The position numbers were made by a program, and so were the translations under genes. From positions 12,939 through 76,938 of the forward strand of contig CALRDH010000003.1 in the NCBI GenBank assembly GCA_943354835.1: 64,000 bases of DNA. The letters are read 5' to 3'. The notes beneath the pieces were generated by a model. It searched no databases. It saw only the letters and a list, made by a program, of their open reading frames with translations, and was not told the origin of the DNA. Shown here piece after piece: positions 19,710 to 54,648 of this stretch (position 1 is the stretch's first letter; every line of letters begins with the position of its first letter). This stretch comes from a candidate division WWE3 bacterium. Its GTDB lineage: Bacteria > Patescibacteriota > WWE3 > 2-01-FULL-39-13.

Positions 19710-21029
19710 TCAAAGTTTACCCCTTAATAATTTTTCAATAATATATGGATTTTCTTTTATAAAAATTTGACTATTTATAGTCCAATGTCCTAATTGCAAT
19801 GTGGTTAATCCCTCAAGAACTCCTGCTATTTTGTCTATCTGTATTGATACTTTTGTAATGGCGAAAGTTTGTTTTGGTTTTAATACTGTATTTCCATCTG
19901 AATTAGCAACTATTTCAACATCAAATAAAATTTCTACATTAGCGATTAGTCCAAAACATTTTTTGAACGCACTAAAAATTTGTTTCTCAGCAAATTTAAA
20001 ATAATCTTGCAATGCAAATGGAACATTTCTTAGCTCCATTCCATCCGATCGCATTTGATTAAAACTGAGCCACTTTCCGGTATTTACCCTAAATTCATTC
20101 GTAGTTACCTTAAGTTCACCAGTAAAATTATTGCTAAATACTAACCCAGTACAGTAATGTGAATGCGACCTGATTATCTTCACTTTACTTAAATCGGCTA
20201 TTTTAAGGCCGAATTCTTCATAACTTTCCACAGCAATGCCATATCTAGGATGATATGGCGTTGGATTAAAACCTCCAGCAGTCGCCAAACCATACGATCC
20301 TTCTGATTGATACCAAGTTTCGCCAACCGCAATATCTCCAAATTCATTGATATGTAGAATGCCGAAATTATGTATTTTACTTTTGTCTAGGTTTGAGATG
20401 AATCTACCTAATGTGATTTTCTTTAGAGATATCCCTGAAATTGCGCGGTTTAAACTTATTAAATCATTTTTAATTTTTACACGTTTAACGAATTTCCTGT
20501 AATTTGGAAGACACAGATTAGAACAATAATTCGGTCCTAAGTTTAAATTGTATTCCCGACCTATTTCTATCTTGTAAAATGGCGAGAGATTTTTTTGAAC
20601 ATGATCGTTCGCAAAAACATCCTTATAAATTTTTTCTAAATATGCAGATTTGCAAATTGAATATATTTCATACGCAAGCAAGTTGGCTAAAACATCGTTA
20701 AGATCAGAGTAGTTACGATGGTATCTACTAATCTTATGTTTATCATTTTCAACGATATTGATTTCATCTACTCCTAGTTGAGCTGCATATCTCTCTTCGT
20801 TTAATCTTAGTATAAATTCTGAACCTGCTAAATTTAAAACCATAGAGTCCCGCCCTTCTAGTTCAGTGAAACCTAAGAGATAAGGTATTAGAGGTTTTAA
20901 TCCTCTGTGGACGAATTTAAGATTCCACTTAATTTCCGTGAAATTATATTTCACATCGACTGAATCACAGCGTGTTAGTAATTTACTAACGGCAATAAGA
21001 TTTTCCACTTTGGAAATTGGATTAATCAT
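19710..21029 (-). CDS. Hypothetical protein (439 aa), downstream partner of the palm-domain protein
   Basis: Overlaps the upstream gene by 8 nt, so it is co-transcribed. No recognisable family. Contains 'GETWYQSEGSYGLATAGGFNPTPYHPRYG'. Confidence 0.5.
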   Translation of the reverse strand: MINPISKVENLIAVSKLLTRCDSVDVKYNFTEIKWNLKFVHRGLKPLIPYLLGFTELEGRDSMVLNLAGSEFILRLNEERYAAQLGVDEINIVENDKHKISRYHRNYSDLNDVLANLLAYEIYSICKSAYLEKIYKDVFANDHVQKNLSPFYKIEIGREYNLNLGPNYCSNLCLPNYRKFVKRVKIKNDLISLNRAISGISLKKITLGRFISNLDKSKIHNFGILHINEFGDIAVGETWYQSEGSYGLATAGGFNPTPYHPRYGIAVESYEEFGLKIADLSKVKIIRSHSHYCTGLVFSNNFTGELKVTTNEFRVNTGKWLSFNQMRSDGMELRNVPFALQDYFKFAEKQIFSAFKKCFGLIANVEILFDVEIVANSDGNTVLKPKQTFAITKVSIQIDKIAGVLEGLTTLQLGHWTINSQIFIKENPYIIEKLLRGKL

Positions 21030-22482
21030 AAATTGAGTAAAAATTTAATTTACCACCTATGATTTTAGATGATATCTGCGTATTCGGTTCTATCTTAATA
21101 ATGTCAGAAATAATACGAACTCCATAATTTTCTTTATTTCTCGGATCAGAAATTTCTCCAATAAGTAAATTTGATTTAGTTGGAAATACATATTTGACTG
21201 GTATTTTGTTAATATAGTTAGTTATTTCAGCAATCATTTCATCTGACTTAGAAAGTAACAATTCTCCAAGAGTATGGCTTGGGACAACTATAACCCTTAA
21301 CACACCATAATCATTATAAAACCTACATCTGCTATACACTTCGCGATTAAATTGATAAATACCTTCAATGATATTTTTGTGGATCAGGTGTGAAAAGATT
21401 GCCAAAGACTCCTCACCGAAAGCCTCTGAAATCCCGGACCAATTTACCCAACGGTATGAAACAAGATGTAAATTCTTAAACGAATCTTGCCCCGACAAAA
21501 TGCTATATAATTCAAGATCTCTTGTATATTCAACGTTATTCTTCACAATCTCAAACGGAGATTCTTCTGAATTAAGAGTTTTATATATCATTAACATAGA
21601 TTTTTGATCTGATATTTTATGTACATTTTGATCAAGAAATATACTTTTTCTTATCAAATCGGGATATAGATAATTCATTGAGCCGACGTCTTCAGATATA
21701 CAATTATCTCGAATAATTCTAGAACCTTCATCTTTGTTAAATTTATCAAGAATTGCAAGATTTTTTAAATCAATTATATTCGGATCTATATTTTTACACG
21801 AAGTTTCAATCCAATATTTATCCCAATTGAATTCGATTTGGCGTGATTTGATACGGTCACATTGTTCTATTTGTACTTTTAAATAAACCCCGCCTTTTTT
21901 TTTGCTTTTACTATGCTTAAGGTGACTCAGATGTGTGTTAATCGCAAAATTATTAATGTTAAAGATTGAGACATCCAAACTTTTGACAATCCCATCAATG
22001 TCATTGGTTATAACAAAAAAACTAAATTCATCAATTCCATCACGAATTAAAAGCAATCCTTTATTTTCAACTCGTCCAAGTTTATTTTCAAGAATGTCTA
22101 ATACATATCGAATATATTCTATAAGAAACTTATCTGTCTTGTCATACCTATGCATTGCTAAAGATAAATTGTACATATTCCCAAAATCGATCGAAATTTT
22201 ATAAAAAACCTGATTGTTAGCTTCTGCAATAATATGAGATAAGTCTTCAAAAAATGCATAGTACTGTCCATCAATTGAATTTGATTGACGATCCACAAAT
22301 ACAAAACTCGAGATGAGTTGCTTTAATATTTGATAATCAGAAAGTGAGAAATTGTATTGCGATTGTATAGACTCCGCTAAAATCTCTTCGAAATCATTCA
22401 ATAAAAAATTTTTAGTTAGCACTATGCTCTCTACCAATCTTGGATTTATCCTAAGTTTTCCTAATAAAGTATTTAAATTCAC
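21022..22482 (-). CDS. Hypothetical protein (486 aa) with N-terminal palm-type nucleotidyltransferase/cyclase-like motifs (GGDEF/Thg1-like)
   Basis: 'FYKISIDFGNMYNLSLAMHRYDKTDKFLIEYIRYVLDIL' resembles GGDEF 'DiDhFK.iND.yGH..GD.vL' and Thg1 'VVVRLDGRNFHRF'. 52 residues later, 'LLLIRDGIDEFSFFV' resembles GGDEF 'aRyGGDEFvvll' and Thg1 'IAYGQSDEYSFVF'. Roughly 330-aa C-terminal region unrecognised. Confidence 0.5.
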   Translation of the reverse strand: MNLNTLLGKLRINPRLVESIVLTKNFLLNDFEEILAESIQSQYNFSLSDYQILKQLISSFVFVDRQSNSIDGQYYAFFEDLSHIIAEANNQVFYKISIDFGNMYNLSLAMHRYDKTDKFLIEYIRYVLDILENKLGRVENKGLLLIRDGIDEFSFFVITNDIDGIVKSLDVSIFNINNFAINTHLSHLKHSKSKKKGGVYLKVQIEQCDRIKSRQIEFNWDKYWIETSCKNIDPNIIDLKNLAILDKFNKDEGSRIIRDNCISEDVGSMNYLYPDLIRKSIFLDQNVHKISDQKSMLMIYKTLNSEESPFEIVKNNVEYTRDLELYSILSGQDSFKNLHLVSYRWVNWSGISEAFGEESLAIFSHLIHKNIIEGIYQFNREVYSRCRFYNDYGVLRVIVVPSHTLGELLLSKSDEMIAEITNYINKIPVKYVFPTKSNLLIGEISDPRNKENYGVRIISDIIKIEPNTQISSKIIGGKLNFYSIYD

Positions 22483-25207: not shown

Positions 25208-26182
25208 TTATTGCGTCGCTTCAAATTCTTGTATTAATGGTATAAGCGATAAATAATTCTGATACATATCAACGTATTTATCATCATATATAAGATCTCT
25301 GTTTCCGTATCCGCCAGTTTCATCAATCTTATATTTCCCATTTTCATCGATTGGCTCAACTTGGTATTCATATGCCGGAGTTCCTAAAGATCCCATGCTT
25401 ACCCATCTTTTTCTAATCCCTAAGATTGTGACTTCACTGTCGTTGTCTATTCCGCCAATCCAGGCTCTTTTCAAAGCATCGGTCAAAAACAGATATGAAT
25501 ATTTCCCATTCATTGATTTAAAAACTCTTGATGTAATTTTTCCATAAATATCAGATTCAGATTCCCAGGTTAAGACTAGATTATTAAAATCAGGTTTTTC
25601 ATTTTGCTCTATATAAATAGTTTCAGGAGCTGTTTTAATTTTAGTTTTATCAGCTGTGTAAATATCTCCAGAAATTTTTAAAGGGTCCTCAATAATCAAC
25701 TTAGAGTACATGGTATCAGTACCACTTTCCAAAGCTGTACCGTAAAATATTTGAATTCCTTCCATTTTATCAGCGATTTTAATTATGTCTTTATTTTGAG
25801 TAGAAATGAAGTACTGCAATTCAAATGGAAGCATTATGCTTTCTTCACTATAGCCTTTATCGTTCCAACTAGGTTGTTCATTACCTTCTTCATCAATCCT
25901 GTATTTATACGCTCTTAACAAACGATACAAACCCTGAGACTTACTCAAAAAGAAAGAGGAAACCAAATATTTTCCATCATCGCCTGCAATGTAAGCGATT
26001 AATCTTGGAACCTCATTACTTGCAATCTGAAATTTATCCGACAAATAAATGCTTCTACCTCCTATTGATATATGGTGTTTAGGAGAAAGCTTATATCTAA
26101 CTAAATCATCAATGGTTAACACTTTTTTATTAAAAGGACGCGAAAGGAAATAGGAATTGCTTAAAATATAATCAAATATCAT
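25208..26182 (-). CDS. Hypothetical protein
   Basis: 324-aa soluble ORF. No motif recognised. Confidence 0.4.
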   Translation of the reverse strand: MIFDYILSNSYFLSRPFNKKVLTIDDLVRYKLSPKHHISIGGRSIYLSDKFQIASNEVPRLIAYIAGDDGKYLVSSFFLSKSQGLYRLLRAYKYRIDEEGNEQPSWNDKGYSEESIMLPFELQYFISTQNKDIIKIADKMEGIQIFYGTALESGTDTMYSKLIIEDPLKISGDIYTADKTKIKTAPETIYIEQNEKPDFNNLVLTWESESDIYGKITSRVFKSMNGKYSYLFLTDALKRAWIGGIDNDSEVTILGIRKRWVSMGSLGTPAYEYQVEPIDENGKYKIDETGGYGNRDLIYDDKYVDMYQNYLSLIPLIQEFEATQ

Positions 26183-26212: not shown

Positions 26213-28753
26213 TCAATAATCCGAAATTACAAGCTCATCCCCTGCTTTTACTTCTTCGTTTATGATTTTGTCGGCAATTAGGGTTTCAATTTTATCCTCG
26301 ATTAATCGATTTAAAGGCCTTGCTCCCCATTCTCTTGAAAAACCTTCTTTGCTTAATTTTTCTATTAAATCTTGTCCATATATAATTTTGATTTTGTTCT
26401 TTTCCATCATTTTTTGACTTAGACCATTAAGTTTTATTTCTGTGATTTGCTTTACTTGATCCAAGGTCAATGGCGTAAATGGAACTAAAGCTGTGAATCT
26501 ATTTAAAAATTCTGGTGCAAAGTAGTCTTTAAGACCTTCGATTGTAATTTTTGTGATCTCATCTGGTGATTTATTTTCATCAATTGTTTTTATAACATCC
26601 TTTGTTCCAGCGTTTGTCGTCATTATTATAAAAGTATTAGTAAAATCAACGACCTCTCCAGTTGCGTCGCTTAATCGTCCATCATCTAAAATTTGAAGGA
26701 AAATATTTAATACATCTTTATTAGCCTTTTCAACTTCGTCTAAAAATAGCAATGAATATGGGTGCATCTTCACTTTCGACGTCAAAATTCCAACATTGCC
26801 ATTTGTGTCACCAATTAACCTGCTTAAACTTGAAGCGTCTTTAAATTCACTCATGTCGATTCGAGTAACAAGGTCTTCACGACCAAAATAATTTTTCGCC
26901 AAAGCCTTGGCCGTTTCGGTTTTACCAACTCCAGTTGGCCCAGAGAACAAGAAGCTTGCTATAGGTTTTTTATCATCTCTTACACCTGTTCTTGACCTTT
27001 TTAGAGCATTTACAATTAAAGTGATGGCCATATCCTGACCAATTACACTTTTGTGCAAAATTTCACCAAGAGTTTTTAAGATTTGTTTTTCATCTATATT
27101 TAAGGCAGAAACTGGAATATCAGCAGTTTGAGAAAAAACCTTTTTTAAAGTCGCTCGGTCTAGAATATTGCTTGAATTACCTTTTGAATTTGACACAGCT
27201 TCTATAAAAAGCTCAACAGCCTTGTCTGGCATTACACTTCTATGCAGATATTTTTTAGAAAGTGCTACAGATGTAAGAATTGCTGGAAAAGTCACAATCG
27301 GATAACCTTTAGTTCCACGACTTTTTTTGATTAATTGTTGGATTATTTCTATTGTTTCTGAATCTGTGGCTTCAGGCATATTTATATTATCAAAATCACG
27401 AGCAAACGAAGCTACTCCCGCAATATATTTTTCATAATCTTTCGCCGTTGTAGCACCAACAAATTGAAATTCGGCAGATGATAAATGAGGCTCAAATGCA
27501 TTAAATAGGTTTGTTTCTTTCGACTGGGCAAGTGTATGGATTTCATCTACGAATAAGATTATATTTCCAGCACCTAAGACCTCTTTTATTATATTTGTGA
27601 TTCTTGCATTAACTTCTCCAGGTGTTCCAGACTGAAGGGCCGTTGTATCAAGTTGAATTATTCTTTTGAATCTTAATGCCTGAATCTTAGTGCCTACAGC
27701 AATTTCACGAGCCATAGCGTGTACAAATGTCGTTTTTCCACAACCAGGTTGACCAACAAGCATTATATTGTTTCTCGAAGATTTACTTAATATATTGATA
27801 AATTCTTCTTTAACGATTTCTCTACCGACAAGTTTTGGCATTAAACCTTTTAGAGCAAGTTTAGTTAAATCTGTTCCGTATTTATTTAAATTGCTTGTAT
27901 ATCCAACGGCCCAAGATTTATCGATTCCACCTGCTGGTGGCAAGTTATATTCATCGCTCCAAATTGTTACTGGTTTTAATTTAAGGAAATTAGCAAAGTC
28001 TAATGAACCAATTATGTCTTGGCTGTTAATTTCAAATTTGTTTAAGAATTCATCGGAATCGACAAAATGTAGTAAATAACTCACAAATAATAATTCGTAT
28101 GTTAAATATGAGTGATTTTTGATTTGCGAATTTACTAAAAGGACTTTTTCGATAAAAAGTTTTGGATTTGCAGAGTTTTTATTTGCATCTAGATACTGAA
28201 AAACTGTTTCTGGTACAAGTTCTGCTATTTTTACAAACGTGATTATGCTTGCGTTCTTTTTGAAGGAATCAACAATGCTTTCGAACTTTCCTTTACTTAA
28301 ATTTTTAAATAGCAGTCGTAATGTGTGATCGCCAGCGCCTCCATATTCCTGAATTGATGCAGTATTTTTAATTTTGGAAATTGGAAAAAACAGAAAAAAG
28401 CAGATTCTATATGTGATTAAGAAAAGTACGAAACTTATACCAATCCAAAAATAATTGATCAAAAGATAAGGAATGCCTGCCAGAAGTCCTGCGTATACGA
28501 CAAGTCCGATGATAACACCACCTATCACAATTATTGTTGAAAGAACAATTGAAATTGTTCGAATAACAAAACCGTTAATTCTTGAGAAAATACCTGGAAG
28601 ACCAAACAAAGGCTTAAACAAACTTTTAATCATAGCCACCAAACCAAACTGATGGCTTAAAATAGCGGAAAGCCTATACAAAGAGCGGAAATACTTGCGA
28701 TGAAAATCGTATAAATAAAATCTAACGAGATATAAAAATAAATTAGAAATCAC
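26213..28753 (-). CDS. Membrane-anchored Clp/Hsp100-family AAA+ ATPase (two AAA modules) with N-terminal polytopic domain
   Basis: Four N-terminal hydrophobic helices over the first ~130 aa. Then D1 Walker A 'LVGQPGCGKTTFVHAMA' and Walker B 'ILFVDEIHTL'. Then D2 'FLFSGPTGVGKTETAKALA' with 'LLFLDEVEKA' and the sensor-2 'REWGARPLNRLIE'. Confidence 0.8.
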   Translation of the reverse strand: MISNLFLYLVRFYLYDFHRKYFRSLYRLSAILSHQFGLVAMIKSLFKPLFGLPGIFSRINGFVIRTISIVLSTIIVIGGVIIGLVVYAGLLAGIPYLLINYFWIGISFVLFLITYRICFFLFFPISKIKNTASIQEYGGAGDHTLRLLFKNLSKGKFESIVDSFKKNASIITFVKIAELVPETVFQYLDANKNSANPKLFIEKVLLVNSQIKNHSYLTYELLFVSYLLHFVDSDEFLNKFEINSQDIIGSLDFANFLKLKPVTIWSDEYNLPPAGGIDKSWAVGYTSNLNKYGTDLTKLALKGLMPKLVGREIVKEEFINILSKSSRNNIMLVGQPGCGKTTFVHAMAREIAVGTKIQALRFKRIIQLDTTALQSGTPGEVNARITNIIKEVLGAGNIILFVDEIHTLAQSKETNLFNAFEPHLSSAEFQFVGATTAKDYEKYIAGVASFARDFDNINMPEATDSETIEIIQQLIKKSRGTKGYPIVTFPAILTSVALSKKYLHRSVMPDKAVELFIEAVSNSKGNSSNILDRATLKKVFSQTADIPVSALNIDEKQILKTLGEILHKSVIGQDMAITLIVNALKRSRTGVRDDKKPIASFLFSGPTGVGKTETAKALAKNYFGREDLVTRIDMSEFKDASSLSRLIGDTNGNVGILTSKVKMHPYSLLFLDEVEKANKDVLNIFLQILDDGRLSDATGEVVDFTNTFIIMTTNAGTKDVIKTIDENKSPDEITKITIEGLKDYFAPEFLNRFTALVPFTPLTLDQVKQITEIKLNGLSQKMMEKNKIKIIYGQDLIEKLSKEGFSREWGARPLNRLIEDKIETLIADKIINEEVKAGDELVISDY

Positions 28754-31404: not shown

Positions 31405-32529
31405 ATGCGAATAGGCATAAATGGCCAAGTATTGTTTATAGATGAAATCGAAAAAACAGGCCCCGTAACATATCTTAAAAATCTTTTAATAGGAATTTCA
31501 AAAATTGATAATAAAAGTTCATATTCAGTTTATTTATCAAGCAAAATAAACAAGGATTCCTTTGAGGAATTTAAATCACAATTTCCTGACAATTTTAATT
31601 TCAAAGTTCTTGAAGTTAAGCCTTCCTGGATGCAAGTTTCACTGGCAAAAGAGCTTTTTCAAAACCCAGTTGATATTTTTTTCACTTCAACACATTCAAT
31701 TCCTTTTCTTTTAAATCCAAAGGTAAAAGTTGTCTCAATGATTCATGGACTAGAATACAAAACAAACAAACAGTATATAAATTCGCCGATTATGGCTTTA
31801 ATTCACCCATTAATAATTTCGTGGGTTCTAAAATTTTCAAAAAAAATCATAACACCATCAAATGCTACCAAAGATGCAATTTTGAAATCATTCAACATCC
31901 AAGAAGAAAAAATAAATGTTATTCACGAAGGCGTAAGTAGCGATTTTTATAAAAGGACAATAAGCGAAATCACAGCAGTTAGGAAAAAATATAAACTCGA
32001 AGATTTTAAATATTTGCTATTTGTGTCAACAATTCAGCCAAGAAAGAATATTCCAAAAATGATTGAAGCATTTGCAAAAGCTTTAAAGGAAAATCCAAAA
32101 CTTAAAAATATTAAACTCGTTATTGCTGGAAAAAACGGCTGGATGTACGAAGAATCATTAAATTCACCAAGCAAATTCGGTGTTTCTGAAAACGTTATAT
32201 TTACAGGACCAATCTCAAGCGAAGATCTCCCCGTATTGTTTTCTGGAGCAATTGCATTTGTGTCTTGTTCACTAGAAGAAGGCTTTGGTTTACCACTTTT
32301 GGAAAGCTTGGCGTGCGAAACTCCTGCAATGGTTTCAGATATACCATCATTTCGCGAAATAGGAGAAGATAAAGTAATATACATCGATCCAAATAACACA
32401 GAAAGCATAAAAAACGGGTTTTTAGAAATCGTTTCAAACCCATTAACAAAAAATTTAGAGGGCCTGGCCCGAAAATATACGTGGGAAAAAACGGCTAAGG
32501 AAACGCTTCAGATAATGAAAGATCTTTGA
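31405..32529 (+). CDS. Family 4 glycosyltransferase
   Basis: 'EGFGLPLLESLACETPAMVSDIPSFREI' is a GT4 signature. Confidence 0.8.
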   Translation: MRIGINGQVLFIDEIEKTGPVTYLKNLLIGISKIDNKSSYSVYLSSKINKDSFEEFKSQFPDNFNFKVLEVKPSWMQVSLAKELFQNPVDIFFTSTHSIPFLLNPKVKVVSMIHGLEYKTNKQYINSPIMALIHPLIISWVLKFSKKIITPSNATKDAILKSFNIQEEKINVIHEGVSSDFYKRTISEITAVRKKYKLEDFKYLLFVSTIQPRKNIPKMIEAFAKALKENPKLKNIKLVIAGKNGWMYEESLNSPSKFGVSENVIFTGPISSEDLPVLFSGAIAFVSCSLEEGFGLPLLESLACETPAMVSDIPSFREIGEDKVIYIDPNNTESIKNGFLEIVSNPLTKNLEGLARKYTWEKTAKETLQIMKDL

Positions 32530-33633
32530 TTCAGTAATTCCAGCAACACTAACCATAACAATGCCAAATAAACTTGGCAAAATATATCTTAAATATCTTT
32601 TATCCGAAACATTAACAAATAACATATACGTAATGAAAATAATAAATATTGATAATAAATATTTTTTCTTTTCTTTACTTTTTATATAAAAAGCTAGCAA
32701 TCCTCCAAACACAAAAACCGTCCAGAATATTAAAGTAAAATTTCCTCCTGCTAATTCGAAATAATATAAAACTCCGTTGTAATACCTTATGTGAAACGGA
32801 ACTAGACCGACAAGGTCATCAGTGATCCCACGCGAGGAAATTAATATATATTTAATTGTCTGTATTGGTGCAACCCACATAGGTGGATAAACGGCTATAA
32901 AGGTTAAAATCGAGATTAATAAAAATTTAAAGAAATTTAAGAATCCGTTTAGAAATCCTTTATACATAATAAATACAAATAAAATTGCGGGTAAAAATAA
33001 AACTCCCATAAATCTTGTCAAAAGCGCAAACCCGAAAAAAACAGCTGGCAGAACAAAAAAACGTCGTTTAGATCTTAAATAATCCAAAAGTCCGACTACT
33101 GCAGAAATCGTAAACATAAAAAATATAAAATCTAGGTGTAAATCCTTTGATAAATCAACGGATATTGGTTCAAATAATATTAAAAGCGACCATATAACAG
33201 AAGGAATAATTCCAAAAACACCGGCAAATAAAAAAACAGTATATCCAAAAAGTAATCCAGAGACTAAAACAAGCGGAAATTTTGCCCAATAAAGTTCATA
33301 ATTCAAATATGGACATTGATAATCCATATAGGCACATTCTTCATAATTTTTATCAGTCATAAATTTAATTTTTTTTGCAATTTTGTTAGAAAAGCCAGAA
33401 AAAGTCATTATGGTAACACCTGGATGATATGAAATATAGCCTGCATACCCTAAATCTTTACCTTCAATGTATCCACCTTTTAAATTTGTACTTACTATCC
33501 AAGGATAATAATTAATTCGATATAACCAACTAAAATTGTCTTCAAATGGAGGATTCGAGTTAAGACTTGTTAATCTAGTTATAAAAAATATAGCAACTAC
33601 AACAATTGCTAAGACTAACCTATAATTTTTCAT
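32455..33633 (-). CDS. Polytopic membrane protein, GT-C (PMT/ArnT)-like glycosyltransferase candidate
   Basis: 392 aa with about 10 TM segments and loop motifs similar to PMT-like proteins. Confidence 0.4.
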   Translation of the reverse strand: MKNYRLVLAIVVVAIFFITRLTSLNSNPPFEDNFSWLYRINYYPWIVSTNLKGGYIEGKDLGYAGYISYHPGVTIMTFSGFSNKIAKKIKFMTDKNYEECAYMDYQCPYLNYELYWAKFPLVLVSGLLFGYTVFLFAGVFGIIPSVIWSLLILFEPISVDLSKDLHLDFIFFMFTISAVVGLLDYLRSKRRFFVLPAVFFGFALLTRFMGVLFLPAILFVFIMYKGFLNGFLNFFKFLLISILTFIAVYPPMWVAPIQTIKYILISSRGITDDLVGLVPFHIRYYNGVLYYFELAGGNFTLIFWTVFVFGGLLAFYIKSKEKKKYLLSIFIIFITYMLFVNVSDKRYLRYILPSLFGIVMVSVAGITESKIFHYLKRFLSRFFPRIFSGQAL

Positions 33634-35104
33634 TCTTTATTAGAACTATTTTCGACTTTGTTAAAAATTTACCGCTTTGAAATGGTCCCATTATTGGATT
33701 TTTGCATGAAGCACAATTCTCATCGTCAAATCTAATTTCATACCTATAGTCGCTTAAGTTGACGTTATATAAGCTATTCCATGCGTGATCTGCTCGGATT
33801 AATTTCTTTTCTATTCCAAAACTTTCGGAAGTCGTATTTCCCAACTCCCATATTATATTTTGTCTCGAAATAAATTCCGATGAAAAATCTAAAGAAATAA
33901 ACCCCTCAAGGACGATGAATATTATTAAAATTTTGGAATTTATTTTGTAATCTGAAAGCTTCAATAACAAAAACATTGCAATTGGTATCAAGATTAAAAT
34001 ATACCTATCAAAAACAAAAGGATTAACAATTATTAAAAAAATACCAAATAATAATGAATAAAATTCAAACGAAATAGTAAAATTTTTAATTGACTTTAAA
34101 TTCATATTTAAAAAAGCAAATATCACCATTATAAAAAGCGAAAAAGAAGATATTAAATTAAAAATCGATGAATAGTTATATCCAGTCGGAGCTCCAGTAA
34201 GTCCCTGATAAAAAAATCCCATCGAAGTAAATACGTTTGGATAGTAAGGAAATATTTTCCATGGAAAATTTGTATTGATAAATAACAAATATAAGGCATA
34301 ACTAACAAGTAAAGTTGCTACTAAAACTAAAACATTTTTTAACTTATATAGCGTTGCCGTGAGTGTAATTGGCAATAAAAATATTGATATATATATTAAA
34401 CTCGCGAATATATTTGAATAGACATGTTTTATGCTATTTAGATTTTCAAATTTTATGCTTTTTTGACCAGTCATCTCTGATGTCATTGGAAATATAAAAA
34501 AGTAGAATGCTAAAACCATTATCAAAATCAAAAGGTTAATCATCGCAGGCCTATACTTTTTAGAAACTACTTGAGCTATAACAACACCTACTGGTATTAC
34601 TATTGCAGACTGTTTTGCGAGAAATCCTAATATCCAAGAAACACTAAGCTTAATATTTGAGCTCTTATTTGCAAAATATATAGACATTAAAATAAAAAAC
34701 AAAAGATAGATTTCAGTCATAAAGCCCCAAACTGAATATATAAAGATAGGGTTCAAAAATATTAGTAATCCAAGCAACGCACTATTTATTTTAGTTTGTT
34801 TGTAAAATTTATACGAAATTAAGGTCGTGACATAGAAACACGAGACCGCGACAAACAATGTCACCACAGGCAACAAGTTCAATGGAAATACAGATGCGAA
34901 TATCATACCCAAAACACCTTGTGTATAAAAAGTCGTCGCTGTAACAGAAAGTAGCTCAAAATTGCCAGTCAAAAACCTTGCAACACTAACATATCTATTC
35001 CAATCATCATTTTGCATGAATCTAATTGATATCGAAACAGGAAGAATCAATATAAAAAGAGCTAAAGCTACAAAGCCAATTTTAGAATACGATAAAAAGC
35101 GCAT
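33620..35104 (-). CDS. Polytopic membrane protein (GT-C/O-antigen-polymerase-like)
   Basis: 494 aa with more than 10 TM segments. Overlaps the downstream membrane protein gene by 14 nt. Confidence 0.4.
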   Translation of the reverse strand: MRFLSYSKIGFVALALFILILPVSISIRFMQNDDWNRYVSVARFLTGNFELLSVTATTFYTQGVLGMIFASVFPLNLLPVVTLFVAVSCFYVTTLISYKFYKQTKINSALLGLLIFLNPIFIYSVWGFMTEIYLLFFILMSIYFANKSSNIKLSVSWILGFLAKQSAIVIPVGVVIAQVVSKKYRPAMINLLILIMVLAFYFFIFPMTSEMTGQKSIKFENLNSIKHVYSNIFASLIYISIFLLPITLTATLYKLKNVLVLVATLLVSYALYLLFINTNFPWKIFPYYPNVFTSMGFFYQGLTGAPTGYNYSSIFNLISSFSLFIMVIFAFLNMNLKSIKNFTISFEFYSLLFGIFLIIVNPFVFDRYILILIPIAMFLLLKLSDYKINSKILIIFIVLEGFISLDFSSEFISRQNIIWELGNTTSESFGIEKKLIRADHAWNSLYNVNLSDYRYEIRFDDENCASCKNPIMGPFQSGKFLTKSKIVLIKNEKL

Positions 35105-38968: not shown

Positions 38969-41128
38969 TTATTTAGTACTTCCTAGCAAGACGTCTGATT
39001 TAGAAGATCCGTCTACTGTCACAAAAAAGCCAGAATCATCATAATCAACAACTATCTTGCTACCTTTTTTAGCAATATCATCAATAATTGCTTCTGAAAT
39101 CTTATTTTCTACACTTTTTTGAATCAGACGCTTTAATGGCCTTGCTCCCATATCCAAACTATAACCATCTTTCACCAAAGAATCTTTAGCCTTTTTTGTA
39201 ACTGAAACCTCAATATCACTTTCTGAAAGCAATTTAGCGACAGAATTTATCTCAATATCAACAATTTCTTTAACTTCAGACTCGCTTAACGGCTTGAATA
39301 TAATAATATCGTCAATACGATTCAAAAATTCAGGTTTAAACCTATTTTTTAGAGAATCTTGCAGACTATGCTTTATTCTTTTGTAAGCATCCTCAACTTT
39401 ATCGTCACTTTCAACATTCATGCTTAATTCTGAAAAACCAATCTTTGCGTGGTTTAAAAATTCAGAACCAACATTTGAAGTCAAAATAATTATTGTATTT
39501 TTGAAATCTACAAGACGACCATGCCCGTCTGTAAGCCTGCCATCATCCATAATTTGCAAAAGTGAATTGAAAATATCTGGATGCGCTTTTTCTACTTCAT
39601 CAAATAAAATAACGCTAAAAGGTTTTCGTCTAACCTTTTCTGTTAATTGACCGCCTTCATCGTATCCGACATAACCAGGAGGCGATCCAATAAGTCTTGC
39701 AACATTATGTCTTTCGTTATATTCACTCATATCAACACGAATAAGATAATCTTCAGATCCATATAAAACTGTTGCTAAAGCCTTTGCCATTTGCGTTTTA
39801 CCAACCCCAGTTGGGCCTAAAAACATAAAAACACCAATTGGTCTATTAAGTGGCTTAACACCAGCTCTTGCTCTTCTTATCGACTGTGAAACTATCTCTA
39901 CGGCCTCTTTTTGACCAACAACCATTTTCCCCATTTCGGATTCAAGATTTTTGAGCTTCTTTTTTTCATCTAGCGATAATTCACTAAGAGGAATTCCGGT
40001 TGCAGTAGAAACTACAGCTGCAACATGTTCAACTTTCAAAATTGGGACATTTTCAAGCTTAGTTTGGACCCATAAAGCTGTAAGTTCGTTTTTGACTTGG
40101 CTTAATAATGTAATTTTATCCTCGATCACTTGTCTTTTAACATCGTCTATTTCTTTTCTTGATTGATCTTCTAAACTTTCAATCTGCGTTAAAACTTCCC
40201 TTAAATTTTCAGGCTCTTTTAACGAAAGTTGAAGTCTTAAACCTGCGCCTGCTTCATCTATTAGATCAATTGCTTTATCAGGTTGAAATCTATCTGAAAC
40301 ATATCTTGAAGAAAGCTTTACAGCTGCCTCTAAAGCTTCATCGCTGATTATTATCTTATGATGTTCCTCATATCTTTTTCTTAAACCCTCAAGGATTTTA
40401 AATGTGTGTTCAGGTGAAGGTTCTTCTACCAAGATTTGTTGAAACCTTCTTTCTAAGGCTGCGTCTTTTTCTATAATTCTATATTCCTTTAGCGTTGTTG
40501 CACCAATCAATTGCAGTTCACCACGTGCCAAATAGGGCTTTAAAATATTAGATGCATCCATTGAACCTTGTGCACTTCCAGCACCGACCAATGAATGAAC
40601 CTCATCTATAAATAAAATTACCTGACCTTTTGTTTTTATAACTTCTTCAATAACTTCTTTTAACCTTTTTTCAAAAGATCCACGGTGAACAGTTCCTGCA
40701 AGCATTGCTGCTAAATCAAGTGCTACTAAGCGCTTTTTTCGCAAAGGCTCTGGAACCATATTTTGAACTAACTTTTGAGCAAGGCCTTCTACAATTGCTG
40801 TTTTTCCAACACCAGGCTCACCAATTAAAACTGGATTATTCTTTTTACGTCTTGATAAGATATGAATAACACGATCAATTTCTGCTTCACGTCCAATAAC
40901 AGGATCAAGATTTCCTTCTCTTGCATATTCTGTTAAATCTTTGCTGAATTGATTTAATGATTCTGTACCTTCTGATTCTTTTTGAAGCTCCGAAAAACAC
41001 TGATCACACAATGGCATATAGACAAGTCGCCCATTAATATTCATTGCTGTTTGTTGTTTTGCTTCCCTCTTTCTACAGTTGGAACACACGACCATAATTT
41101 TACCTTTCCCCAAAATATTATCACTCAA
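38969..41128 (-). CDS. ClpC/ClpB-like Hsp100 AAA+ chaperone with N-terminal C4 zinc ribbon (no Clp_N repeats)
   Basis: 'CSNCRKREAKQQ ... MPLCDQCF'. D1 'LIGEPGVGKTAIVEGLA' and 'ILFIDEVHSLVGAG'. A coiled-coil middle region. D2 'FMFLGPTGVGKTQMAKALA' and 'ILFDEVEKAH'. Confidence 0.85.
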   Translation of the reverse strand: MSDNILGKGKIMVVCSNCRKREAKQQTAMNINGRLVYMPLCDQCFSELQKESEGTESLNQFSKDLTEYAREGNLDPVIGREAEIDRVIHILSRRKKNNPVLIGEPGVGKTAIVEGLAQKLVQNMVPEPLRKKRLVALDLAAMLAGTVHRGSFEKRLKEVIEEVIKTKGQVILFIDEVHSLVGAGSAQGSMDASNILKPYLARGELQLIGATTLKEYRIIEKDAALERRFQQILVEEPSPEHTFKILEGLRKRYEEHHKIIISDEALEAAVKLSSRYVSDRFQPDKAIDLIDEAGAGLRLQLSLKEPENLREVLTQIESLEDQSRKEIDDVKRQVIEDKITLLSQVKNELTALWVQTKLENVPILKVEHVAAVVSTATGIPLSELSLDEKKKLKNLESEMGKMVVGQKEAVEIVSQSIRRARAGVKPLNRPIGVFMFLGPTGVGKTQMAKALATVLYGSEDYLIRVDMSEYNERHNVARLIGSPPGYVGYDEGGQLTEKVRRKPFSVILFDEVEKAHPDIFNSLLQIMDDGRLTDGHGRLVDFKNTIIILTSNVGSEFLNHAKIGFSELSMNVESDDKVEDAYKRIKHSLQDSLKNRFKPEFLNRIDDIIIFKPLSESEVKEIVDIEINSVAKLLSESDIEVSVTKKAKDSLVKDGYSLDMGARPLKRLIQKSVENKISEAIIDDIAKKGSKIVVDYDDSGFFVTVDGSSKSDVLLGSTK

Positions 41129-50772: not shown

Positions 50773-50958
50773 TTATTTCCTTTTTGATAACAAAATTACT
50801 CCGAACACTACAAATAAAAGTGGCCAAAGTTTCCACATGGTTTCCCATACGCCATATTCTATGATTCCAAAATTATTTAGGATCATTATAACCCCTAGGA
50901 TTATTAATATAACCGCGGCCCAAAAACCTGAGTTTAGTTTGTTTTCTTTTGTTTCCAT
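50773..50958 (-). CDS. Small two-TM membrane protein
   Basis: 61-aa hydrophobic ORF. Its start region overlaps the 3' end of the ThyA-like gene by 25 nt. Confidence 0.35.
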   Translation of the reverse strand: METKENKLNSGFWAAVILIILGVIMILNNFGIIEYGVWETMWKLWPLLFVVFGVILLSKRK

Positions 50959-52502
50959 GACTTGATTGTATCAAATTCTAACGGATTATCTTGTGTAAAT
51001 TTAAGACCTAATTTTATTGCCGTTTCGGCTCTTTCTAATTGCCTGCCAATATATAGTGCATTTCCTAAAGTTGATATGGCAAGTCCATTATCGATTTCAA
51101 ATGAAAGTAGTCGTGATGCATACTTTTTGTTTCCATCAATCCGCCATTCTTTTATTTCTTCGTTTCCCCTCGGTGTCATCCATCTAACAACGATTTCGTC
51201 ACCTTCGACCATTACGCTTAAATTTCCTCTAGGATCCCATTCGCAGTATCCTTTGTCATTTTTTTCGTATAGTTCTTTTGCATCCTGATAATTATGCTCA
51301 TAAATATGTGCCATGTTAGAAATTGTTATTAACGAGCCCATTTCGACACCAAGTTCACTTGCAATTTTTGATTGGAGTTTTCTTAGTGCAAAAGCGTTTA
51401 ATGGCCATGCGTTGTACATATCGTTGCTTCTGAAATATGCCGTTTGTGTTAATTTCCCTTCGTATATTTGGCATTGAATCAAAAATAAACATGGAGTTTT
51501 TGTAGGCGGCCTTTTTGGAAAAACATCTGTAAATGGATTTGCTAAAAGCGCGATTGCTCCTTTATCGTATTTGAAACCTTTTAATTTTCTAACGATTGAA
51601 ATAGCAACTTGATCAAATCCTCCGTTTGTAAAAAATTCATCGAATCTTTCAAGTTTTAACCATGGATAAATTTCTTTAAGGGCATCGATTTCCAAGTGTG
51701 CAAAGTTAAATAACCTTTCACCATATGTGTAATCCTCTGTATGCGGATCTGGATCAAAAAATCCTTTAAAATATTTTTCTAAATCTTCTTTTGAGAATGG
51801 CAGATATTCTGGAACATGCCAATTTTCTGGGTCTTCGTCTGTAACAACTGCAGTCAGATTTAGCATTTCTTTCATTGTTTTTGATGTATCAGAAACGTAA
51901 TTTATAACGGCTTCAGATTCTAAACCAAACATGCTTATGTGTTTTAGTATTGAAATATAGGCTTCAGCAATTGTAGGACGCCTTATTTTTGTGGAATCAA
52001 TTTCGCTTGGATAATTTTGTACATCGGCCTTTGGCGGATCGGGGAAAATCTCGGGCTCACGCCATTTTATAGGGGCTACCCTTTTTATCAGTATGTCATT
52101 AAGTTTCTCAACGCCTATCATGTCTATAACTTCTACGTTTTTGCGAAATGCCTCAAGTGCTTCACGTGGTATTTCCTTTTCGATTTTCGCAATGTCATCG
52201 CCGATTACTTTGTAATCGGCATCGACGCCATTTTTCATAAAACGCAAAAACGCTTCACCGCTTCCCATTAAATCACTTCCAACAAGATATAATTTTGTAA
52301 TAACTGGATTTGCAAGAATATTTCGTAATATGTAATTTATGCCTTTTTTTGTATAAAGCTGGCCGGCGATATAAAAATCATCGGGGTCAACCATTTTCTC
52401 TAAAGTTTCCTTTGGAGTCCACAAAGTCGCAATCGCAACACCTGAATCGGGATTTGATAAAGTCAAACGGTCCTTAAAATAAATCGGCCAAGACATAAAC
52501 AA
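50934..52502 (-). CDS. Thymidylate synthase (ThyA) family protein with long N-terminal (~300 aa) and C-terminal (~100 aa) extensions
   Basis: Catalytic core 'TPCLFLIQCQIYEGKLTQTAYFRSNDMYNAWPLNAFALRKLQSKIASELGVEMGSLITISNMAHIYEHNY' aligns with ThyA '[41 protein letters not shown] ... GDTHLYSNH' (Cys nucleophile, RS-D, N..AS, H-Y-NH). Confidence 0.6.
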   Translation of the reverse strand: MFMSWPIYFKDRLTLSNPDSGVAIATLWTPKETLEKMVDPDDFYIAGQLYTKKGINYILRNILANPVITKLYLVGSDLMGSGEAFLRFMKNGVDADYKVIGDDIAKIEKEIPREALEAFRKNVEVIDMIGVEKLNDILIKRVAPIKWREPEIFPDPPKADVQNYPSEIDSTKIRRPTIAEAYISILKHISMFGLESEAVINYVSDTSKTMKEMLNLTAVVTDEDPENWHVPEYLPFSKEDLEKYFKGFFDPDPHTEDYTYGERLFNFAHLEIDALKEIYPWLKLERFDEFFTNGGFDQVAISIVRKLKGFKYDKGAIALLANPFTDVFPKRPPTKTPCLFLIQCQIYEGKLTQTAYFRSNDMYNAWPLNAFALRKLQSKIASELGVEMGSLITISNMAHIYEHNYQDAKELYEKNDKGYCEWDPRGNLSVMVEGDEIVVRWMTPRGNEEIKEWRIDGNKKYASRLLSFEIDNGLAISTLGNALYIGRQLERAETAIKLGLKFTQDNPLEFDTIKSWKQKKTN

Positions 52503-54123: not shown

Positions 54124-54648
54124 TTAGATCTCCACGTTTTTTTTAACTTTATATTTCAAATGGATTAGGTCTTCATCGTATTTATCTATGCTAATAAGCT
54201 CTAGTGCTAAATCAGCATCTACAGGTTTAAACAAATTGATTCCTCTACCCAAAATTAGCGGATGTACGCTTAAGATTACCTCATCAATCACGCCAGCTTT
54301 TAAAAATGATGCATTTATTATTCCACCACCGATTAGTAGCACAGAATTCAGTCCCCTTTTTTCAAGTTCTTCTAGTAGCTCGTTTGGAGCTAGATCAGTA
54401 ATAAATTTGGTTGGAGAGTCAACGTGTAAAGACTTATTCGTAGTAAGCACAACATTTAACTTATTATTGCCATATGGGAAATCATCTCCACTTACCTCCA
54501 TTGTTTTTCTTCCCATTACAATAGCATCTGAATTTTCTACATACCTCTCTAATTGGGCCCAATCGGTATCACACACCCAATCAGTACCATGATTCTGTGT
54601 TGCAATATAACCATTGGCTGTTATAGCCATGTATAAAGTTAACTTCAT
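54124..54648 (-). CDS. Dihydrofolate reductase family protein (RibD C-terminal domain-like)
   Basis: 'MKLTLYMAITANGYIA ... AIVMGRKTME ... LLIGGGIINASFLKAGVIDEVILSVHPLILGRG' is the RibD_C/DHFR-like signature. Confidence 0.7.
   Translation of the reverse strand: MKLTLYMAITANGYIATQNHGTDWVCDTDWAQLERYVENSDAIVMGRKTMEVSGDDFPYGNNKLNVVLTTNKSLHVDSPTKFITDLAPNELLEELEKRGLNSVLLIGGGIINASFLKAGVIDEVILSVHPLILGRGINLFKPVDADLALELISIDKYDEDLIHLKYKVKKNVEI

Follow-up and report, generated by a model that had tools for sequence, protein, structure and literature searches.

A membrane-anchored Clp/Hsp100-like ATPase of candidate division WWE3 and its proposed place as the fused form of a two-gene module of the Candidate Phyla Radiation

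A stretch of 64,000 nucleotides from a candidate division WWE3 bacterium (hereafter the window) encodes on its reverse strand an 846-aa, membrane-anchored double-AAA+ ATPase of the Clp/Hsp100 kind. Judged by its sequence, this protein is the fused, i.e. "Rosetta-stone", form of a two-gene module that is widespread in the Candidate Phyla Radiation (CPR, Patescibacteria), since its N-terminal membrane module is homologous to a small protein that is encoded directly upstream of a Clp-like ATPase in most CPR. The ATPase belongs to the known Clp/Hsp100 kind; the small-protein module is matched by no Pfam or NCBIfam model. The term "small membrane protein + membrane Clp-like ATPase module" is defined in this analysis and corresponds to no curated family, and full-text literature searches returned no description of a membrane-anchored Clp in CPR or of a small-protein/ATPase system of this type. 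Clp/Hsp100 ATPases are the textbook soluble threading machines; in ClpA, ClpB and ClpC the aromatic pore-1 residues drive threading, and ClpB needs its M-domain to cooperate with Hsp70 (DnaK). For the protein described here we see a slightly better than even chance that it is a ClpP-independent membrane remodelling ATPase driven by the second AAA+ ring (D2), and not a processive unfoldase.

The gene and its parts are as follows, all on the reverse strand of the window:

26213..28753, whole gene (GTG start, stop codon 26213-26215), encoding the membrane-anchored Clp/Hsp100-like ATPase of 846 aa with its two AAA+ modules
28358..28753, aa 1-132, N-terminal membrane module with homology to stand-alone CPR proteins of about 120 aa
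28559..28753, aa 1-65, predicted amphipathic basic helices (2-36 and 38-43) and the conserved loop SLFKPLFGLPGIFSRINGFVIR (AlphaFold2 (AF2), charge, insertion energy, family columns)
28457..28558, predicted transmembrane segment 1, aa ~66-99, uncharged family-wide (Kyte-Doolittle, family hydropathy and charge, insertion energy)
28388..28444, predicted transmembrane segment 2, aa ~104-122, which would bring the chain back to the cytoplasm (hydropathy, family charge, insertion energy)
27980..28354, divergent Clp N-domain, aa 134-258, nine short helices (profile-profile comparison)
27884..27979, family-specific connector, aa 259-290, with the conserved W265 and LPPxGGxDKxWA, G276 being invariant (family alignment; low AF2 confidence)
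27164..27883, first AAA+ module (D1), aa ~291-530, with Walker A GQPGCGKT, Walker B ILFVDEIH and sensor-1 T435 retained
27611..27634, D1 pore-1 loop, aa 374-381, QSGTPGEV (HMMER against ClpB structures, family columns)
26216..27163, D2 AAA+ module with D2-small, aa ~531-846 (Pfam, family alignment)
26786..26812, D2 pore-1 loop, aa 648-656, GDTNGNVGI (HMMER against ClpB structures, family columns)

The 846-aa protein with two AAA+ modules that a preliminary description of this DNA had reported is encoded by an uninterrupted open reading frame (ORF), and Pfam matches AAA (residues 330-437), AAA_2 (596-754) and ClpB_D2-small (762-842) in it. The Walker A and B motifs that had been listed for both modules are likewise present, and the sensor-2 motif GARPLNR lies at 810-816. 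Among the NCBIfam models the nearest are ClpB, ClpA and ClpV, and the protein is far under all the curated cutoffs, i.e. 455 bits against 1232 for ClpB (TIGR03346, the match being split into two stretches) and 437 bits against 993 for ClpA (TIGR02639, residues 283-843 being aligned in one stretch); neither equivalog score is reached. The PDB sequences matched by HMMER are ClpB (1qvr, E 4e-110) and ClpA, the latter over residues 273-840. The AF2 model of the full-length protein (pLDDT 85.5, pTM 0.77) has a fold that matches the structures of ClpC, ClpB and ClpA with E values between 1e-46 and 1e-38. In other words, the tandem AAA+ modules with Walker A and B and the D2-small domain, by which class I Clp/Hsp100 proteins are recognised, are seen in sequence and fold alike.

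The fused gene is real and no frameshift artefact, because the frame is uninterrupted in the window, a like architecture is found in 25 further sequence clusters, and a second WWE3 genome (locus L013) has an 84%-identical orthologue, likewise of 846 aa, with a GTG start and identical first residues. The 25 clusters (P0001-P0026 without P0019, giving with the protein of the window a fused family of 26 members) came from a database search; they are 33-93% identical to the query over at least 94% of its length, N-terminus included, and are 804-873 aa long. The fused architecture is thus as unusual and as conserved as the preliminary description supposed, and one of the two findings that it had named as fatal, i.e. 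a separate upstream gene joined through a missed frameshift or sequencing error, was looked for and the fusion stands. The nearest relatives belong to WWE3 and to further Patescibacteria. With one genome taken for each GTDB species, a pattern scan built on 7 closer N-terminal sequences, which reaches the close subfamily only, found this subfamily at nine loci, in WWE3 and in metagenome-assembled genomes labelled "Ca. Saccharibacteria" and "Patescibacteria group". An exact look-up of the protein itself found no record.

The start of the protein was also considered. A start at Met41 was rejected: protein-level conservation of the first helix extends back to about residue 3, this helix has its homologue in the FPxWWY helix of the stand-alone proteins, and the DNA upstream of the short gene calls encodes it. 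Three public gene calls (P0003, P0013 and P0014, 804-807 aa) begin at the equivalent of Met41 and have the conserved first helix in frame upstream (for P0014 at L003:6902-7001); these database entries are probably truncated at the N-terminus.

A profile of residues 1-132 retrieves stand-alone proteins of 105-134 aa that have no Pfam annotation; those with a named source are from Patescibacteria. The hidden Markov model search of 1.84 billion representatives gave 826 matches at E<=1e-3 and 469 at E<=1e-10, and the best 150 have, with few exceptions, lengths of 105-190 aa. Fused and stand-alone sequences share the motif (F/L)xP(L/M)(F/Y)G...R...F..R, in which F46, P48 and R65 (numbering of the window protein) are invariant and R58 and F62 nearly so. 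Common to the stand-alone proteins are the FPxWWY helix, a loop-helix motif of the form KNLFVPMYGxYD..GRIISFxxR and a single long stretch of hydrophobic residues; the second transmembrane segment of the fused proteins is not present in them. The protein of the window has the motif followed by a long charge-free hydrophobic stretch, and no second, stand-alone copy of the module was found within the 64 kb.

The genomic arrangement of the small genes supports the two-gene module. In loci L010, L011 and L012 the small gene abuts or overlaps a Clp-like gene of 875-923 aa. In the metagenomes 544 relatives were confirmed and 80 loci were kept, 53 of which had at least 1400 nt of sequence downstream; a same-strand, Clp-like double-AAA+ ORF of 855-999 aa lies directly downstream of the small gene in 50 of these 53, and all 50 ATPases have hydrophobic segments in their first ~150 residues. 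The aromatic residue of the D1 pore loop is absent from all 40 of the split partners that were aligned, and from the 10 fused sequences aligned alongside them, the protein of the window included. The D2 PPGY is kept in approximately 5 of the 40, the others carry deletions of 4-6 residues, and the split-system partners have no M-domain. In the three split partners examined for this, the D1 Walker B motif has degenerated (ED, KD, EN). The module is thus linked to a Clp-like ATPase with degenerate pore loops in both arrangements, fused in the window and adjacent in the split loci.

Two observations concern individual split loci. The ATPase at L011:6408-9179 has a DnaJ-type CxxCxGxG / CxxC zinc-finger-like motif before its own transmembrane segments, and its N-domain is matched by Pfam Clp_N. 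An apparent further fusion of the module (P0226, 414 aa) was rejected: its contig (L102, contig_6296) is ridden with frameshifts, the order TGT, module, Clp, Glycos_transf_4, DUF192 is kept as elsewhere, and the genes are fragmented, apparently by frameshift errors.

The hydrophobic N-terminus and the membrane tethering noted at the outset are supported by the present data, i.e. by the Kyte-Doolittle profile, by two charge-free hydrophobic segments and by the AF2 helices. Strong hydrophobicity is confined to residues 59-128 of the window protein, and in the whole family two stretches, 66-99 and 104-122, are free of charge, with a short polar turn between them. A simple insertion-energy sum on the scale of Hessa et al. 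2005 has favourable values only near 67-85, which is the best window, and 97-121; it is strongly unfavourable for residues 1-65, where there are 9 K/R to 1 D/E and the basic residues are regularly spaced. The AF2 model of residues 1-290 (pLDDT 87.3) has helices at 2-36, 38-43, 55-100 and 102-122. The four hydrophobic helices of the preliminary description are thus found as helices, yet only two of them are plausible transmembrane segments by hydropathy, charge and insertion energy. Residues 1-65 are probably cytoplasmic or lie on the membrane surface, and the two segments are predicted to make up a hairpin whose ends both lie in the cytoplasm, as the cytoplasmic AAA+ domains require.

The region behind the membrane helices had been taken for a linker. 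It is better described as a divergent Clp N-domain: residues 134-258 form nine short helices in the AF2 model (pLDDT >90), and the profile-profile comparison of this region with a canonical Clp N-domain alignment gave a probability of 92.7% and an E value of 4.3e-7. A Foldseek search of the N-terminal model against the PDB gave nothing significant; Clp N-domains nonetheless recurred in its listing. Pfam finds no Clp_N in the protein, nor in the 25 full-length homologous clusters, so the earlier statement that it does not begin with Clp_N as ClpA/B/C do is correct as to the start, but an N-domain does follow the membrane module, as in class I Clp/Hsp100 proteins. The order of the domains is membrane module, Clp_N-like domain, connector, D1, D2 and D2-small.

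The catalytic and the pore-lining residues of the rings show different degrees of conservation. In D2 the catalytic residues are invariant in the fused family (Walker A K611, Walker B D672/E673, sensor-1 N714, Arg finger R752, sensor-2 R812). The Arg-finger site of D1 (ERRFQ in ClpB) varies between R, K, S and N across the family and reads ARDF in the protein of the window. In the HMMER alignment the D1 pore loop is SG--TPGE where ClpB has AGAKYRGE (AGAKYRGEFE), i.e. the loop lacks the aromatic residue and is shorter by 2; in D2, GDTNGN-----VGI stands against GAPPGYVGYEEGG of ClpB, i.e. the GYVG tyrosine is gone together with 5 residues. The family columns show no aromatic D1 pore residue in any of the 26 fused members, and a tyrosine near the D2 pore position only in P0014 and P0015. 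The aromatic pore-1 residues (KYR in D1, GYVG in D2) are thus missing from both rings, which the preliminary description had overlooked.

Two further features of the well-known Clp proteins are missing. The ClpP-docking motif [ILV]G[FL] of ClpA, ClpC and ClpE does not occur between the sensor-1 TTNAGT and PEFLNRF in any of the 26 members, which confirms the suspected absence of an IGF/LGF loop. Nor is there a ClpB M-domain: 271 residues separate the two Walker A lysines, no insertion is seen in the alignment and, as mentioned, the ClpA model aligns in one stretch. As the pore-loop aromatics of both rings and the M-domain are missing, the label "unfoldase or disaggregase" that had been given to the protein is not supported as it stands.

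Several known systems share some of these features. ClpA also has two AAA+ modules with similar spacing, no coiled-coil M-domain and a Clp N-domain before D1; unlike ClpA, the protein of the window has no IGL/IGF ClpP loop and no KYR/GYVG tyrosines, and it adds a 130-aa membrane module. ClpB/Hsp104 is the best overall sequence match, likewise without a ClpP-docking loop and with D2-small, but it has both pore tyrosines and the M-domain that defines the work of ClpB with DnaK, and it is not membrane-anchored. ClpE and ClpC share the superfamily and the domain order, and the D1 pore residue of ClpE is also non-aromatic (Ile194; PMC13125188); in contrast to the window protein, they are soluble and have the D2 tyrosine, a VGF/IGF motif and an M-domain. 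FtsH, Msp1/ATAD1 and Bcs1 have an N-terminal transmembrane anchor that turns the entry face of the ring to the bilayer, but they are single-ring classical AAA proteins outside the Clp/Hsp100 lineage, without a Clp N-domain or D2-small, and the pore loops of FtsH and Msp1 are functional.

A likeness of another kind is seen with the Torsins of the eukaryotic ER and nuclear envelope, which act with LAP1/LULL1. Torsin is Clp/Hsp100-related, is membrane-associated via an N-terminal hydrophobic domain, has no aromatic pore loops, needs transmembrane cofactors, and is regarded as a remodelling and not a threading machine (PMC5425593). We note that this is an analogy of working mode and that no membership is claimed. 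Torsins, which sit in the ER lumen, have one AAA+ ring module each and no Arg finger of their own, this being supplied by the AAA-like cofactor, whereas the protein of the window has two modules and keeps the D2 Arg finger R752. Its partner module is a membrane protein of ~120 aa, too small for the AAA-like fold of the Torsin cofactors.

The mechanism we propose follows this analogy. The protein would assemble as an Hsp100-like hexamer on the cytoplasmic face of the membrane (the assembly being taken from family knowledge), with the N-domain/D1 entry face toward the bilayer because of the domain order. D2 would be the hydrolytic motor, and D1 would serve mainly for nucleotide binding and ring cohesion. 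With its pore aromatics lost, its D2 loop shortened and neither a ClpP loop nor an M-domain, the protein probably does not thread processively, feed a protease or work with Hsp70. More probably, an ATP-driven conformational change would remodel, release or assemble a membrane-embedded partner or client via the N-domain and the membrane module, in a manner comparable to Torsin with its transmembrane cofactors.

Conventional unfolding and degradation would be left to a second Clp gene of the window, about 10 kb away:

38969..41128, reverse strand, 719-aa ClpE/ClpC-like ATPase paralog (Pfam, translation, alignment)

Where Clp_N would be expected, the paralog carries a zinc-finger-like CxxC...CxxC motif at its N-terminus; it also has an AAA_lid_9 and a short M-domain, and shows a D1 loop VHRG, a D2 loop GYVGYDEGG and a ClpP-docking motif KIGF. 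Its motifs identify it as a ClpE/ClpC-type partner of ClpP; for comparison, ClpE has a Zn-binding N-terminal domain, a VGF motif and the pore residues Ile194 and Tyr526 (PMC13125188). Since GYVGY and KIGF are kept, the genome already has a standard unfoldase. An equivalent of this gene is also present on the related WWE3 contig. No ClpP-like motif was found anywhere in the 64 kb.

Several points weigh against the reading as a non-threading remodelling ATPase. The non-threading mechanism is deduced from absent motifs, and hexamer and membrane orientation are taken from family knowledge; the topology is an estimate from hydropathy scales and AF2 secondary structure, both of which give two transmembrane segments. 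A working unfoldase without the D1 aromatic exists, i.e. ClpE of E. faecalis with its Ile194 (PMC13125188). As about 5 of the 40 split partners keep the PPGY of D2, threading may be an ancestral ability whose loss is incomplete; the part of the tyrosines could be taken by other residues that line the channel, and the family may have retained some residual threading. Finally, the gene neighbourhoods do not converge on one client.

Some of these points lead directly to the best of the alternatives, to which we give roughly one chance in four: as in the preliminary description, the protein might be a processive unfoldase or disaggregase of the canonical type, special only in its membrane tether, that extracts and unfolds membrane or secretory proteins through its pore, like a protease-less FtsH or Msp1. 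The full Hsp100 fold, the intact Walker A and B motifs of both rings and the complete set of D2 catalytic residues all speak for this alternative, the Clp N-domain could bind substrates or adaptors, and the domain order sets the entry face toward the membrane; the functional, non-aromatic D1 loop of ClpE and the few PPGY-bearing split relatives can be counted in its favour as well. It has, however, to account for the lack of the D1 aromatic in every one of the 26 fused members and 40 partners examined, for the removal of the D2 GYVG tyrosine by a 4-6 residue deletion in most of them, for the lack of an M-domain for Hsp70 coupling and of a ClpP loop, and for a D1 Walker B or a D1 Arg finger that is degenerate in many members.

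The neighbourhood of the gene bears on another alternative, which is about what the client might be and would go with threading as well as with non-threading: the protein might be a dedicated envelope-glycosylation factor that assembles, regulates or recycles GT4 (WecA/MraY-type) or GT-C (PMT-like) glycosyltransferases (GT) or lipid-linked intermediates. We regard this as rather improbable. In the window, an orphan 324-aa gene and then a PMT-like GT-C gene lie downstream of the ATPase gene, and a NUDIX gene, a GT1, a methyltransferase, a GT4/GT1 gene and two polytopic membrane proteins lie upstream, so that the surface-glycosylation surroundings described earlier are there. The remaining genes of the window, which has ~33% GC, are housekeeping genes (DnaE, CTP synthase, GatA/GatB, TsaD, MgsA, ribosomal protein L19). 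In the 84%-identical orthologue locus L013 the upstream GT and methyltransferase genes are conserved, but no homologue of the PMT-like or the 324-aa gene was found in the 2.2 kb available downstream.

The other fused relatives do not have this neighbourhood. At 44-65% identity the order is SUF operon, a 361-366 aa protein, ATPase, prfB, an unknown gene, ftsE, ftsX and an M23 peptidase; the relative with 35% identity follows a ribosomal-protein cluster and radC, with a release-factor gene two genes further on. A gene for GT2+GtrA is found ~6 kb downstream of the ATPase in L001, L003 and L008. In the split loci a Glycos_transf_4 gene (MraY/WecA family) directly follows the ATPase in ~20 of 42 cases, on the same strand and with a tiny gap or overlap. 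This gene often occurs with QueH or DUF192, and TGT lies upstream in 17 loci; as it keeps company with TGT and QueH, both of them queuosine genes, this arrangement may have been inherited as such and need not be a functional operon. That genes of polyprenyl-phosphate glycosylation recur near the module is suggestive, but inheritance of the gene order could account for it. The functional tie to glycosylation that the preliminary description had drawn gains from the split loci and loses by L013 and by the differently flanked distant relatives, and we regard such an enzyme as one, weakly supported, client candidate.

Other genes near the ATPase were noted as well. The 324-aa ORF (25208..26182, reverse strand), which lies 30 nt downstream of the Clp-like gene, has no hydrophobic segments, no Pfam, NCBIfam or PADLOC match and no homologue in the examined loci of other fused relatives. 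It was rejected as a conserved partner, as it is not homologous to the 361-366 aa protein upstream of the ATPase in the relatives. The latter protein is directly upstream of the ATPase (L008:8919-10004, L001:5888-6979 and L003:5726-6826), in L008 with a 4-nt overlap; its HGHAQ motif recalls the HxHxQ of HIT/GalT-like nucleotidyl transferases, no Pfam or NCBIfam model matches it, and it does not occur in the window. Downstream of split ATPases Glycos_transf_4 is also found fused to the epoxyqueuosine reductase QueH (L074:8074-9636, L047:7189-8760 and L032:8006-10237), and the L032 fusion further carries TSP3 repeats and a YkuD L,D-transpeptidase domain. The queuosine genes bracket the split module, often with TGT upstream and QueH downstream.

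The two adjacent polytopic membrane proteins upstream (32455..35104, reverse strand; 392 and 494 aa, with ~7-8 hydrophobic segments each and no Pfam match) may be GT-C, polymerase or flippase-like parts of a surface-glycan cluster, because they are located beside the GT1/GT4 and methyltransferase genes. Elsewhere in the window there are two overlapping large ORFs (19710..22482, reverse strand; 439 and 486 aa) without Pfam match or hydrophobic segments. A 522-aa ORF (50934..52502, reverse strand) is an unusual fusion of MtrA-like (PF04208), thymidylate synthase (PF00303) and pterin-binding DUF4346 domains, and is situated near a RibD_C/DHFR-like gene (54124..54648).

An anti-phage defence function was considered and rejected: PADLOC models gave only partial, generic D2 matches (DolB and PDC-M37B, E ~1e-33, residues ~535-725) with no full-length match, the small protein had none, and the context is one of housekeeping genes.

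It is also very unlikely that the protein is a decayed, catalytically irrelevant pseudo-enzyme kept only as a membrane scaffold. The degenerate pore loops, the variable D1 Arg finger and the degenerate D1 Walker B of split relatives would fit such a decay, but sequences with an overall identity of only 33% agree in every catalytic element of D2 (Walker A and B, sensor-1, Arg finger, sensor-2), and hundreds of CPR genomes have kept the module despite their reduction; on both counts this points to selection on ATP hydrolysis. That a frameshift or a sequencing error has joined the hydrophobic N-terminus on from a separate gene upstream can be practically dismissed: the homologous module is truly a separate gene in most CPR genomes and the noisy contig L102 does show frameshift-made chimeras, but the fused frame runs through without a break in the window as well as in 25 independent clusters of varied samples and lineages, and the fused proteins have the extra second transmembrane segment that is required by their topology and missing from the stand-alone proteins.

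The losses and the conservation described above are of interest in combination. One lineage unites a membrane anchor, a dedicated small membrane subunit that is either fused or adjacent, and the loss of the pore aromatics, the ClpP loop and the M-domain, and despite these losses the ATPase site of D2 is strictly conserved; this combination suggests an Hsp100 that does something other than unfolding. The coexistence of fused and split forms predicts that the small protein interacts with the neighbouring ATPase, and the family is a natural system for asking what an Hsp100 ring does without pore-loop tyrosines. Tentatively, and with more doubt than confidence, we suggest that the protein of the window and its split relatives form an unrecognised CPR-specific class of Hsp100, i.e. 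a membrane-embedded complex of a small transmembrane subunit and a Clp-like ATPase without aromatic pore loops, which would be a non-threading bacterial counterpart of Torsin and its transmembrane cofactors with a task in envelope or membrane biogenesis, possibly the handling of polyprenyl-phosphate glycosylation enzymes or of other polytopic membrane proteins. As the module is kept in hundreds of sequence clusters despite the heavy genome reduction of CPR, it is likely to matter for membrane or envelope biology, and the proposed class, if it is real, would serve an envelope or membrane task of these ultra-small, mostly host-dependent bacteria.

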